Virus record (IMG/VR): IMGVR_UViG_3300014204_000107
Span: 1 to 43,467 of that record
Length of the DNA: 43,467 bases
DNA from: a virus
Lineage: Duplodnaviria; Heunggongvirae; Uroviricota; Caudoviricetes
Strand: one strand, 5' to 3'
The position numbers and the translations under genes were made by a program. Positions within the stretch are counted from its first letter, which is position 1. Each line of letters begins with the position of its first letter. The notes under the pieces were generated by a model. It was not told where the DNA came from, ran no database searches, and worked only from the letters and a program-made list of their open reading frames with translations. Shown piece by piece: positions 35,614 to 37,356 of the stretch.

Positions 35614-36489
35614 ATGGCAATATGTAAAAAATGTGGTAAAGAATTTGAACCAACAAAAGGTTTTGTAACAACTTGTTCAACCAAATGTAGAAATACACAA
35701 GTTTGGTAGGAAGAAGATAAAAAGAAAAAAAGCATTTCAGCCAAATCATCAGTCAAGCATAAAAATACATTGAGTGCATTACATGATCGTATGAGGGAAA
35801 AAAGAAAAATTCGAATAAATTTACTACCTGCTGAGCAACGTAATTTTGAATTAGTTTATGGTGAAAAGGGAAAAATTGCAAATTGTTCTACTTGTAATAT
35901 TGAATTTGTTGTGTTGCATCGTGGTAATAAATATTGTAGCAAAAAATGTTCAGATATTGGCAAGAGTAAAAACATTTCTTTGAAATTAAAGGGCCATGGC
36001 GGAGTTCGAGAAGGAAGTGGATGGGGAAAAAGTGGATGGTATAAAGGATTTAGATGTGACAGTACATGGGAATTAGCATGGATCATATATAATTTAGATC
36101 ACAATATTAAATTTACGCGCAACAATGAAAAATTTGAATATGTATTTAATGATGAAATTAAACATTATGTGCCAGATTTTATAATGGAAGATGGTGTATA
36201 TATTGAAATTAAAGGATATCTTACTGCGTCAGTGATGGAAAAATCAAAACAATTTCCGCATAAATTAATAATGCTGCAGAAAAAAGATATGCAAGTATAT
36301 TTAAACTATGTAAAAGAAAAATATGGTGCTAATTTTATTGAAATGTATGAAAATAATCCGCACAAAATAAAGAAAAATAAATGTAAAATATGTGGCAAAC
36401 CAGCAAAAAAATTATTGTGTTCAAGACAATGTGCAATAATTAATGCAACACGAAATCATAATATGCTGCGTTCGCCTAAATTGGAATAG
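35614..36489 (+). pseudogene. PD-(D/E)XK free-standing (homing-type) endonuclease with Zn-finger repeats, interrupted by in-frame TAG at 35707-35709
   Basis: ATG 35614 MAICKKCGKEF...CSTKC is in frame with ORF 35770; CDSTWELAW, YVPDF...IEIKGY nuclease motifs. Confidence 0.75.
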
Positions 36490-36641: not shown

Positions 36642-36713
36642 GCGGTATAAGCTAAAATAGTCTAGCGCCGGCGTAAAGCCCCAGAGTAAGAAGTTCGACT
36701 CTTCTATACCGCG
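36642..36713 (+). tRNA. Atypical tRNA-like RNA, nominal anticodon AAA, defective anticodon stem
   Basis: Perfect acceptor GCGGTAT/ATACCGC, D-stem GCTA/TAGC and T-arm AGAAG-TTCGACT-CTTCT; CCGGC/CCCAG has 2 mismatches; no G18G19. Confidence 0.55.
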
Positions 36714-36809
36714 CAACTGGTGGCCATATAAATAAACTCCTGCTAGAGTTAATGCATATGGGGCCCATTTCAATAGAATAAAGTGTAGCAGAACGATATT
36801 TTATTAGCC

Positions 36810-36881
36810 ACTTGTTTGGTGTAATTGGATAGCACGCCGGCGTGGAAGTCGGAGACATAGGTTCGAACCCTATAATAAGTC
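36810..36881 (+). tRNA. Atypical tRNA with 6-nt anticodon loop (GTGGAA; His/Pro-like)
   Basis: ACTTGTT/AATAAGT, CCGGC/GTCGG, T-arm ATAGG-TTCGAAC-CCTAT, C73. Confidence 0.55.
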
Positions 36882-36887
36882 CAATAT

Positions 36888-37008
36888 GTTGGTGTGACGC
36901 AATTGGCAGACGTCCCGGGACACCGGAGTCGCAGGTTCGAATCCTGCTAAGTAAGGAGGCATCCTGAAAATTACGGATGGAATGCTGGTTCGATTCCAGC
37001 CACCAACA
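36888..37008 (+). ncRNA. 121-nt tRNA-like RNA with two T-arms
   Basis: Perfect acceptor GTTGGTG/CACCAAC + A73; Leu-type D-arm; T-arm 1 at 36931-47; T-arm 2 at 36984-37000; CATCC/GGATG arm between them. Confidence 0.65.
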
Positions 37009-37052
37009 CAACGATGCTAGAAACGCATGTTTAATATTAAAACTAAATTAGA

Positions 37053-37084
37053 TTTGGATATTAGAGAAAATTTCCACATATTTG
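37053..37084 (+). promoter_or_regulatory. Bacteroidota-type promoter P3 inside RNA array
   Basis: TTTG (37053-56) - 20 nt - CATATTTG (37077-84); TTTGGATATTA is identical to P1. Confidence 0.55.
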
Positions 37085-37268: not shown

Positions 37269-37351
37269 TGCGGGTTCGCAAGAAATGGTGGACTGGTAAG
37301 GCTCATAACCTTACGCCGAAGGCGCCGGGGGTTCAATTCCCTCACCCGCTA
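37269..37351 (+). tRNA. tRNA(CAT) with fMet-like acceptor and long variable arm
   Basis: TGCGGGT/ACCCGCT (1:72 mismatch), TAAGG-CTCATAA-CCTTA, variable hairpin CGCC-GAA-GGCG, T-arm GGGGG-TTCAATT-CCCTC. Confidence 0.75.
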
Positions 37352-37356
37352 CAAAT

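Follow-up and report, generated by a model that had tools for sequence, protein, structure and literature searches.

The known RNAs that bear the closest comparison with the element reported here are tRNAs themselves and several RNAs that resemble them in part. With canonical tRNAs the element shares a 7-bp acceptor stem, a T-arm stacked on this closing stem and a discriminator base; however, in place of their 5-bp anticodon stem and 7-nt loop with U33 it has 4 bp capped by 4 nt. The resemblance is more extensive in the case of the class II tRNA-Leu: both have U8, a Leu-type D region (a 3-bp stem with an AAU(U)GGUAGA-like loop), A73 and a location in tRNA arrays, and both carry additional structure after the anticodon arm and ahead of the T-arm. 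Unlike tRNA-Leu, the element displays a tetraloop stub, and its variable-arm position is taken by a second T-arm together with a GGCA hairpin and another GG. The tRNA-like domain of tmRNA is likewise built of an acceptor stem and a T-arm, is chargeable and non-decoding, and is recognized by a synthetase that is blind to the anticodon (AlaRS); unlike tmRNA, the element is devoid of an mRNA-like frame, pseudoknots and the G3:U70 pair, with the 3:70 pair of the copy studied here being U:A.

Among the phage-encoded RNAs, the T4 rnaC (species 1) and rnaD (species 2) are also small stable RNAs that lie at the end of a phage tRNA cluster and have no assigned function. The former has a canonical T-arm at its end, along with a tRNA-like terminal stem, but this is its single T-arm, the other hairpins being long and unrelated, and it scores 15.1 bits under the family model described below; the latter has no T-arm and is not matched by that model. 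The nested "double tRNA" RNAs L130 and L137 are non-decoding, come from phage arrays and combine two T-arms and two D-type GG loops on one acceptor stem. However, their anticodon stem is long and has a complete, permuted tRNA body (T-arm, acceptor hairpin, D-arm) inside it, whereas the element has no such enclosing stem, its first hairpin is closed locally and its second module sits in the variable region; L130 reaches 34.7 bits under the family model. Finally, YrlA (RF02553; Chen et al. 2014, PMC4201824) also mimics tRNA without decoding and shares the canonical T-arm and the GG of the D-loop; it represents a known type of substrate for tRNA enzymes, and mimics with 6-nt "anticodon" loops are seen in both settings. 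It differs in that its arms, which include a single T-arm, follow a circularly permuted order (T-arm, acceptor hairpin, D-arm), and in having a long Ro-binding terminal helix and a linkage to rsr, whereas the order in the element is D-arm, hairpin, T-arm, hairpin, GG-bearing strand and T-arm, all inside a 7-bp stem.

The window, i.e., the whole stretch of DNA that was analysed (43,467 nucleotides), constitutes the first 43.5 kb of a complete phage record of 299,351 bp with direct terminal repeats. ARAGORN identifies 38 tRNA genes and a tmRNA (genome positions 151393-151770) in this genome, split over two arrays: the one in the window (35.3-40.7 kb) features many odd genes, and canonical genes predominate in the other (145-156 kb). 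No tRNA for Tyr, Cys or Pro was called in the phage. The window contains 13 T-loop-like 11-mers where 1.8 would be expected. At least four other tRNA-shaped genes of this phage have loops too short for decoding (at 36642, 36810 and 40500 in the window and at 76502 in the genome), and a YrlA-like permuted mimic (28 bits) is found at 40316-40429, 3.3 kb downstream of the element. The phage further encodes a PolyA_pol/CCA-adding-type protein and, near 70 kb and 33 kb away from the element, a TROVE-domain (Ro60/Rsr-like) ORF (37.6 and 33.4 bits); searches for RtcB, L/F-transferase and class Ia synthetase genes in the phage recovered none. An antisense ORF at 36652-37011 matched no Pfam family and was treated as a chance frame over the RNA genes, and a promoter and terminator scan of the array returned no more sites than shuffled sequences did.

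The two-T-arm element itself (36888-37008, plus strand) belongs to the first array, where it lies 6 nt 3′ of a tRNA-like gene (36810-36882) and is followed by a 260-nt A+T-rich spacer. Its G+C content is 54%, as against 32.3% for the genome. It comprises the following parts, in order:

36888-36894, plus strand: 5′ strand of the closing stem, GTTGGTG, forming seven Watson-Crick pairs with 37001-37007 (pair probability 0.97-1.0).
36895-36914, plus strand: U8 and G9, followed by a tRNA-Leu-type D-arm (the D-arm proper being 36896-36914) with the stem ACG/CGT and flanking pairs and the loop AATTGGCAGA; G18G19 at 36905-36906.
36915-36926, plus strand: hairpin 1, CCGG-GACA-CCGG, at the anticodon-arm position; 4 bp and a tetraloop, with no anticodon.
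36927-36930, plus strand: the 4-nt connector AGTC, which in the family alignments has the place and length of a short variable loop.
36931-36947, plus strand: T-arm 1, GCAGG-TTCGAAT-CCTGC.
36948-36953, plus strand: the linker TAAGTA with the family motif AAGTA, this motif or near variants of it being present in most members.
36954-36965, plus strand: hairpin 2, AGGA-GGCA-TCCT, a conserved hairpin.
36966-36983, plus strand: the purine-rich strand GAAAATTACGGATGGAAT with the second conserved GG (ACGG at 36973-36976; AUGG in the family).
36984-37000, plus strand: T-arm 2, GCTGG-TTCGATT-CCAGC, contiguous with the closing stem in the manner of a tRNA.
37001-37008, plus strand: 3′ strand of the closing stem, CACCAAC, and the discriminator A (37008); CCA is not encoded.

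The preliminary description had recognized the perfect 7-bp acceptor stem, the D-arm, the CCGG-GACA-CCGG hairpin and the two T-arms, and we confirmed each of these at the coordinates listed above. It had also allowed for the element being an assembly chimera. The locus is present in two public runs, one from a landfill sample, probably that from which the record derives, and the other from an independent groundwater metagenome (X2), and none of the runs found is an RNA run; a 162-nt unitig from the groundwater sample corresponds to 36866-37027 with 0 differences, and carries both T-arms and both strands of the closing stem contiguously. Since this separate assembly spans the element without a difference, it is no assembly chimera.

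Relatives of the element were recovered by combining covariance models with pattern scans. A single-sequence covariance model of the window copy, run over viral loci gathered with a two-T-loop pattern, gave a first full-length match with the same arm order at 38.9 bits (L055/L092). Comparison of this sequence with the window copy by eye revealed a GGCR-tetraloop hairpin at the same "linker" place, which seeded later pattern scans that recovered further sequences of the same layout. Under a nine-sequence covariance model, the window copy, itself one of the nine training sequences, scores 101.5 bits, members of the family 74-121 bits and ordinary tRNAs at most 37 bits, with E-values coming from briefly calibrated models; the members that this model found outside its training set are L143, L165, L166, L173, L164, L181, L185, L180, L179 and L184. 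An independent pattern restricted to the middle of the RNA (T-loop 1, AGTA and GGCA), which demands neither T-arm 2 nor the closing stem, returned nine new loci: seven are full-length with T-arm 2 and a 7-bp closing stem, and the other two are chance matches. Altogether, the pattern-seeded searches on which the census is based yielded 19 distinct full-length sequences of about 117-122 nt, along with identical copies in further samples and two more members (L162 and L132) that are cut by the ends of the available DNA.

These members are borne by unrelated viral or metagenome contigs, mostly fragments of very large phages, and are always situated within tRNA arrays, in the orientation of the tRNAs and in many cases 6-10 nt away from the next tRNA; the carrier arrays do not consistently lack any one amino-acid specificity. 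The homolog search that the preliminary description had proposed thus gave 19 distinct full-length sequences, and the occurrence of the same layout in unrelated contigs disposes of the idea, entertained there, that the element might be unique to this genome. BLAST searches of cultured phages with the 1-kb locus and with L147 and L156 returned nothing and identified no cultured carrier; a relaxed search with L181 returned T-arm pieces only (coverage at most 32%). The nearest syntenic relative (L121) that was reached via a neighbouring gene, that of DUF7873 (68% amino-acid identity), shows no tRNA region next to this gene, and its 161-kb record contains no member of the family; an exact 26-nt pattern from the element found no match in viral contigs. 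Two sets of candidates were set aside: the first two-T-loop pattern scan retrieved mostly complete tRNAs with a second, truncated T-arm element, which is another topology, and among the MAG contig matches L174-L177 only L174 reached 47.9 bits and resembles a tRNA with a trailing element.

In a structure-blind MAFFT alignment of the 19 distinct sequences (mean column identity 66%), 89.7% of the cells are paired, as against 64.1% in shuffles and 36-49% in slid controls. Both sides have changed in 21 of the 27 pairs (15.7 in shuffles), and the covariation score is 0.70 (0.21 in shuffles); 0 of 500 shuffles reached the observed values of pairing or covariation. By helix, the closing stem (96.2% of cells paired), hairpin 1 (97.3%) and the three inner pairs of hairpin 2 (90.4%) show changes on both sides in 7/7, 4/4 and 3/3 pairs, respectively, and two pairs each have changed on both sides in T-arm 1 (98.7%) and T-arm 2 (100%). 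The D stem, with 54% of its cells paired, occurs in roughly every second member, the window copy included. Both T-loops are invariant in the family, as is the GGTTCGA-TCC of T-arm 1 (19/19); G1, U8, G9, A14, G18G19 and A21 are invariant or nearly so, and the discriminator is an A in 17 of the 19. The second GG is invariant in a smaller alignment, and in that of the 19 sequences its first G is invariant and AUGG is present in 15. The acceptor-stem sequences vary freely, with G3:U70, an alanine-type mark, occurring in five members.

Hairpin 1 in most members has 4-5 bp and a 4-nt loop, and a GGCA loop caps both of the small hairpins in 13 of the 19 members. In L166 and L143, hairpin 1 still has 5 bp and a 6-nt loop and hairpin 2 is without the GGCA; since these two members depart from the GGCA pattern at both hairpins, we infer a hint that the two tetraloops might work as a pair. 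A third hairpin before T-arm 2 (GUA-UGG-UAC), which is present in many members and absent in the window copy, L150 and L156, was left off the consensus, and a long-range AAGUA-UACU pairing that can form in some members, but not in these same three, was not adopted. The window copy has all the features of the family, i.e., the six helices, the two T-loops, the two GG motifs, the AAGUA linker and the GGCA of hairpin 2, and deviates in the loop of hairpin 1, which is GACA rather than GGCA, and in the second GG, which is ACGG rather than AUGG. Thus, the "purpose-built double-elbow RNA" that the preliminary description had offered as one of two explanations finds support in the 19 distinct sequences, their covariation, the invariant T-loops and the two conserved GG motifs.

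One helix of the window copy stands apart from this conserved architecture. The minimum-free-energy fold of the element (-42.8 kcal/mol, z = -2.25 against 200 shuffles) equals the drawing in the preliminary description, which included a hairpin formed by CATCC (36960-36964) and GGATG (36975-36979). The complementarity of these segments in the window copy is real (pair probability 0.76), but the hairpin is not a conserved fold: across the family, only 34.1% of its cells are paired, which is the shuffle level. It is mutually exclusive with hairpin 2, dominates the computed ensemble of the window copy and would bury the second GG; the family fold in the window copy, at -41.6 kcal/mol, lies 1.2 kcal/mol above it. 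We take the family fold to be the functional fold of the window copy as well, and the predicted CATCC/GGATG helix to be a peculiarity of this member.

The same helix bears on the notion that the element is a precursor that yields an ordinary decoding tRNA once some 45 internal nt, from hairpin 1 through the linker, have been removed. Excision of 36915-36959 would indeed leave 76 nt with an acceptor stem, a D-arm, the CATCC/GGATG stem, a 4-nt variable loop and a T-arm, in a phage that has no called Tyr, Cys or Pro tRNA. However, the resulting "anticodon loop" would be 10 nt long, the stem that closes it is the very one that is not conserved, and a 7-nt anticodon loop results from such a removal in 0 members of the family. 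Moreover, no splicing motif was found at the element and no RtcB ligase in the phage. We therefore regard such a precursor as a very improbable explanation.

The ancestry of the family can be traced through its D region. Nucleotides 8-27 of every member were set against the corresponding region of 1,370 distinct phage tRNAs: the nearest isotype is tRNA-Leu for 18 of the 19 members, and 18 of the 20 D regions nearest to that of the window copy are from tRNA-Leu, as against a 10% share of Leu in the whole set (Mann-Whitney p ~1e-32). The long (class II) tRNA-Leu sequences score above the short ones in this comparison, and those of Ser and Tyr rank low. Likewise, among the tRNAs of this phage the family model matches tRNA-Leu(AAG) best, and among those of T4 it matches tRNA-Leu best. 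The block of approximately 57 nt from T-arm 1 to the second GG is situated between hairpin 1 and T-arm 2, in the place of the class II variable arm. The simplest history suggested by these comparisons would be that a tRNA-Leu had its anticodon arm shrunk to a capped stub and its variable arm replaced or extended by a T-arm module. This differs from the truncated tRNA-Val(GAC)-like body of the preliminary description, which is at odds with the Leu-type D region; the GACA that had been read as the Val anticodon is the form that the GGCA tetraloop takes in this member. The class II 3′ half that it had postulated does not hold up as a fusion partner, but its allusion to class II tRNAs retains a kernel of truth, in that the extra T-arm module occupies the position of the long variable arm of a class II tRNA-Leu.

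The 5′ half of the element does resemble the tRNA-like gene 6 nt upstream (local score 41, background 18 +/- 5.5), and its 3′ half is weakly similar to the gene at 76502. Together with the several degenerate-looking tRNAs in the array of this phage, the upstream resemblance might suggest a functionless, decaying pseudogene that arose by duplication or fusion of neighbouring tRNA genes. However, the 5′ half is no closer to that neighbour than to the T-arm of tRNA-Ser(GGA), and these resemblances were not taken to point to a recent fusion of local tRNAs. A fusion by local accident is also difficult to square with an architecture that is conserved in its entirety well beyond this genome. Further, every helix of the window copy is perfectly Watson-Crick, compensatory changes extend over 19 distinct sequences from unrelated contigs with both T-loops and the GG motifs held invariant, and the mean column identity of 66% argues against recent horizontal copying of one sequence. 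Accordingly, decay into a pseudogene has very little to commend it.

Standard annotation tools pass over the family. ARAGORN (in tRNA and tmRNA modes) and Rfam at the gathering score make no call on the element, the tRNA model RF00005 (cut-off 29 bits) does not match it even at E-values of up to 10, and none of the Rfam 15 families attains its threshold with the window copy or with the L156, L164 and L162 members. Under permissive Rfam settings only tRNA-Sec (19.7 bits, cut-off 47) and YrlA (18.1 bits, cut-off 69) touch it, each through a T-arm. The latter match, the better YrlA-like RNA downstream and the TROVE-domain ORF of this phage raise the prospect that the element is a Y RNA, partnering a phage Ro60/Rsr, with its tRNA-like part serving as an effector-binding module as in YrlA. 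However, the YrlA alignment is carried by T-arm 1 alone, the order of the arms in the element is not permuted, and the element shows neither a long terminal helix nor a GNCGAA-type motif (PMC4201824). The TROVE gene is also remote from the element, and TROVE is absent from ten other carrier records (one complete 361-kb genome, the rest being fragments). These observations make a Y RNA function improbable.

We favor the interpretation that the element is a non-decoding look-alike of tRNA-Leu, of class II-type descent, with LeuRS or another factor that reads shape as its partner, and would place its probability at roughly 0.6. One part of this interpretation appears considerably firmer, namely that the family, judged by its sequences, is a conserved, non-decoding mimic derived from tRNA-Leu that is matured like a tRNA, which we consider very probable; the specific choice of LeuRS, the leading candidate, as the partner is a tentative one and more doubtful than the whole. 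We envisage that the element would be co-transcribed with the tRNAs of the array, and that its ends would be cut by RNase P and the 3′ processing enzymes, with CCA being added after transcription by a nucleotidyltransferase, either that of the host or the phage's own. T-arm 2 and the GG of the D-loop would then form an ordinary tRNA elbow, and T-arm 1 and the second GG would form a second, elbow-like knob at the place of the class II variable arm, although which GG meets which T-loop is a conjecture on our part. With no anticodon loop, the RNA would read no codon; rather, it would most likely engage LeuRS or another factor that recognizes tRNA-Leu by its shape, and could possibly be charged with leucine.

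The case for LeuRS derives from what this enzyme recognizes in its substrate. The elements critical for bacterial LeuRS are A73, U8-A14, G18-U55 and G19-C56, in combination with a regular acceptor helix; the anticodon loop has no role in leucylation, and deletion of the anticodon arm costs only an approximately 2.5-fold loss in affinity (PMC2377443, which refers to the study of minimalist RNAs in E. coli by Larkin et al. 2002). At the level of sequence, T8, A14, G18G19, the TTCGA T-loops and A73 are all found in the window copy and are retained across the family. This retention of all the bacterial LeuRS elements, together with the indifference of the enzyme to the anticodon, argues that such an RNA most likely acts through LeuRS or another factor attuned to the shape of tRNA-Leu. 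Several features temper the proposal: for Aquifex LeuRS it matters how the variable arm is oriented and how large it is at most (PMC2377443), and the 57-nt module at this place might block charging; the tRNA core may be weaker in the roughly 50% of members that do not have a D stem; and, given the freely varying acceptor stems and the five members with G3:U70, a uniform synthetase identity is not assured across the family. Further, as neither a synthetase nor an L/F-transferase is encoded by the phage, charging would have to depend on host enzymes, and the phage has no evident user for an RNA charged in this way.

A more elaborate version of the preferred interpretation holds that the RNA is a two-elbow tRNA, chargeable and non-decoding, perhaps leucylated by the host LeuRS, that giant phages would use either to capture LeuRS or to deliver leucine, or else a complex bound to LeuRS, to a second, elbow-binding partner. 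We deem this version unlikely; no such molecule has been described.

Alternatively, the RNA could act as a decoy or sponge directed at an anti-phage factor of the host, one that binds or attacks tRNAs via the acceptor end or the elbow, with the two elbows providing a double bait. The restriction of the family to phage tRNA arrays is consistent with such a role, and the four or more other short-loop tRNA-shaped genes and the YrlA-like mimic of this phage would in that case add up to a battery of look-alikes. The best-known tRNA-directed defences (PrrC, RloC and related systems) cleave anticodon loops. An element that is without an anticodon loop would hence be an odd lure for the kind of attack that is best known. 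Moreover, no defence or counter-defence gene is consistently adjacent to the members, and a generic bait leaves the retained tRNA-Leu features unexplained. Thus, a decoy too is unlikely in our estimate, and the tRNA-Leu look-alike engaging LeuRS or a shape-reading factor continues to be our preferred explanation.

We found no description of a two-T-arm tRNA-like RNA in the literature. A 2023 survey of candidate structured viral RNAs mentions tRNA-like candidates in general terms only (PMC10690425), and the present family may be among its unnamed candidates. Phage-encoded non-decoding tRNA mimics as such are known; it is the two-T-arm architecture that is new, and a family of anticodon-less, tRNA-Leu-derived RNAs of large phages is apparently undescribed. 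As the tRNA finders and Rfam miss the family, its genes are absent from phage annotations. The two invariant T-loops and the two GG motifs suggest two elbows, maybe on one acceptor stem, making it a natural RNA for structural biology. The tRNA clusters of phages are usually interpreted as supplements to codon usage; here, large phages keep tRNA-derived RNAs that are unable to decode under strong structural selection. The family could show how the shape of a tRNA by itself serves in the conflict between phages and their hosts or in the control of the translation apparatus.

We found four tRNA-shaped genes besides the anticodon-less two-T-arm element, three in the window and one elsewhere in the complete phage genome (G000):

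window 36642-36713, tRNA-shaped gene
window 36810-36882, tRNA-shaped gene
window 40500-40577, tRNA-shaped gene
G000 76502-76575, tRNA-shaped gene

All four combine good acceptor stems and canonical T-arms with "anticodon" loops of just 5-6 nt (e.g., GTGGAA, ATTTTA), and three of them are called by ARAGORN as tRNA-??? with two-letter anticodons. They look like additional non-decoding tRNA mimics. The window also codes for two tRNA-Met(CAU)-like paralogues:

window 37269-37352, tRNA-Met(CAU)-like gene
window 37803-37876, tRNA-Met(CAU)-like gene

These have their acceptor stem and 3' flank in common; one displays an 11-nt variable hairpin, and the other, with a non-canonical T-loop (GGCAGAG), receives no ARAGORN call. 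In the A+T-rich spacer directly 3' of the element, a second short contig from the source sample (857 nt, lower depth) shows several 1-2-nt deletions relative to window 37050-37059, suggesting that the sample contains a variant strain alongside this phage, or that the contig resembles the locus but is unrelated to it.

Unusual RNAs are also seen in other phage tRNA arrays:

L130:3730-3865 (same sequence in L137), 136-nt nested double tRNA
L131:2757-2884 (same sequence in L141), unusual RNA
L068:528-633, unusual RNA
L064:390-500, unusual RNA

In the nested double tRNA, the anticodon stem of one tRNA encloses a permuted tRNA body. Among the L131, L068 and L064 RNAs are configurations with three T-arms within one closing stem, and others in which a bare minihelix (acceptor plus T-arm) comes after a complete tRNA. 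Further, 133 nt of a complete 361-kb phage carrying a member of the element's family (L156:749-881) match the tRNA model end to end with 42 bits; this is predicted to be a further tRNA carrying a large internal insertion.

Protein-coding genes linked to tRNA biology or embedded in the tRNA region include:

window 35770-36489 (+), HNH/endonuclease-I-like ORF within the tRNA region
window 39398-40189 (+), DUF7873 protein gene within the tRNA region (128 bits)
G000 178837-179058 and 180166-180288, outside the window, PolyA_pol/CCA-adding head domain in two pieces

The first recalls segB, the homing endonuclease of T4's tRNA cluster. The closest relative of the DUF7873 protein (L121, 68% amino acid identity) is encoded without tRNAs near its gene. 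The head-domain pieces lie in different frames with ~1.1 kb between them, and an intron or homing element possibly interrupts this gene.

Finally, the genome encodes two potential partners:

window 40316-40429 (+), YrlA-type circularly permuted tRNA mimic
G000 ~70314-71024, outside the window, Ro60/Rsr-like TROVE protein ORF (492-aa frame)

The RNA runs from a T-arm through a 7-bp hairpin (CCCGCCA...TGGCGGG) to a D-arm-like segment, and scores 28 bits against Rfam YrlA, below the cut-off of 69. The YrlA-like RNA and the TROVE ORF, ~30 kb apart, probably constitute a phage Ro/Y RNA pair.
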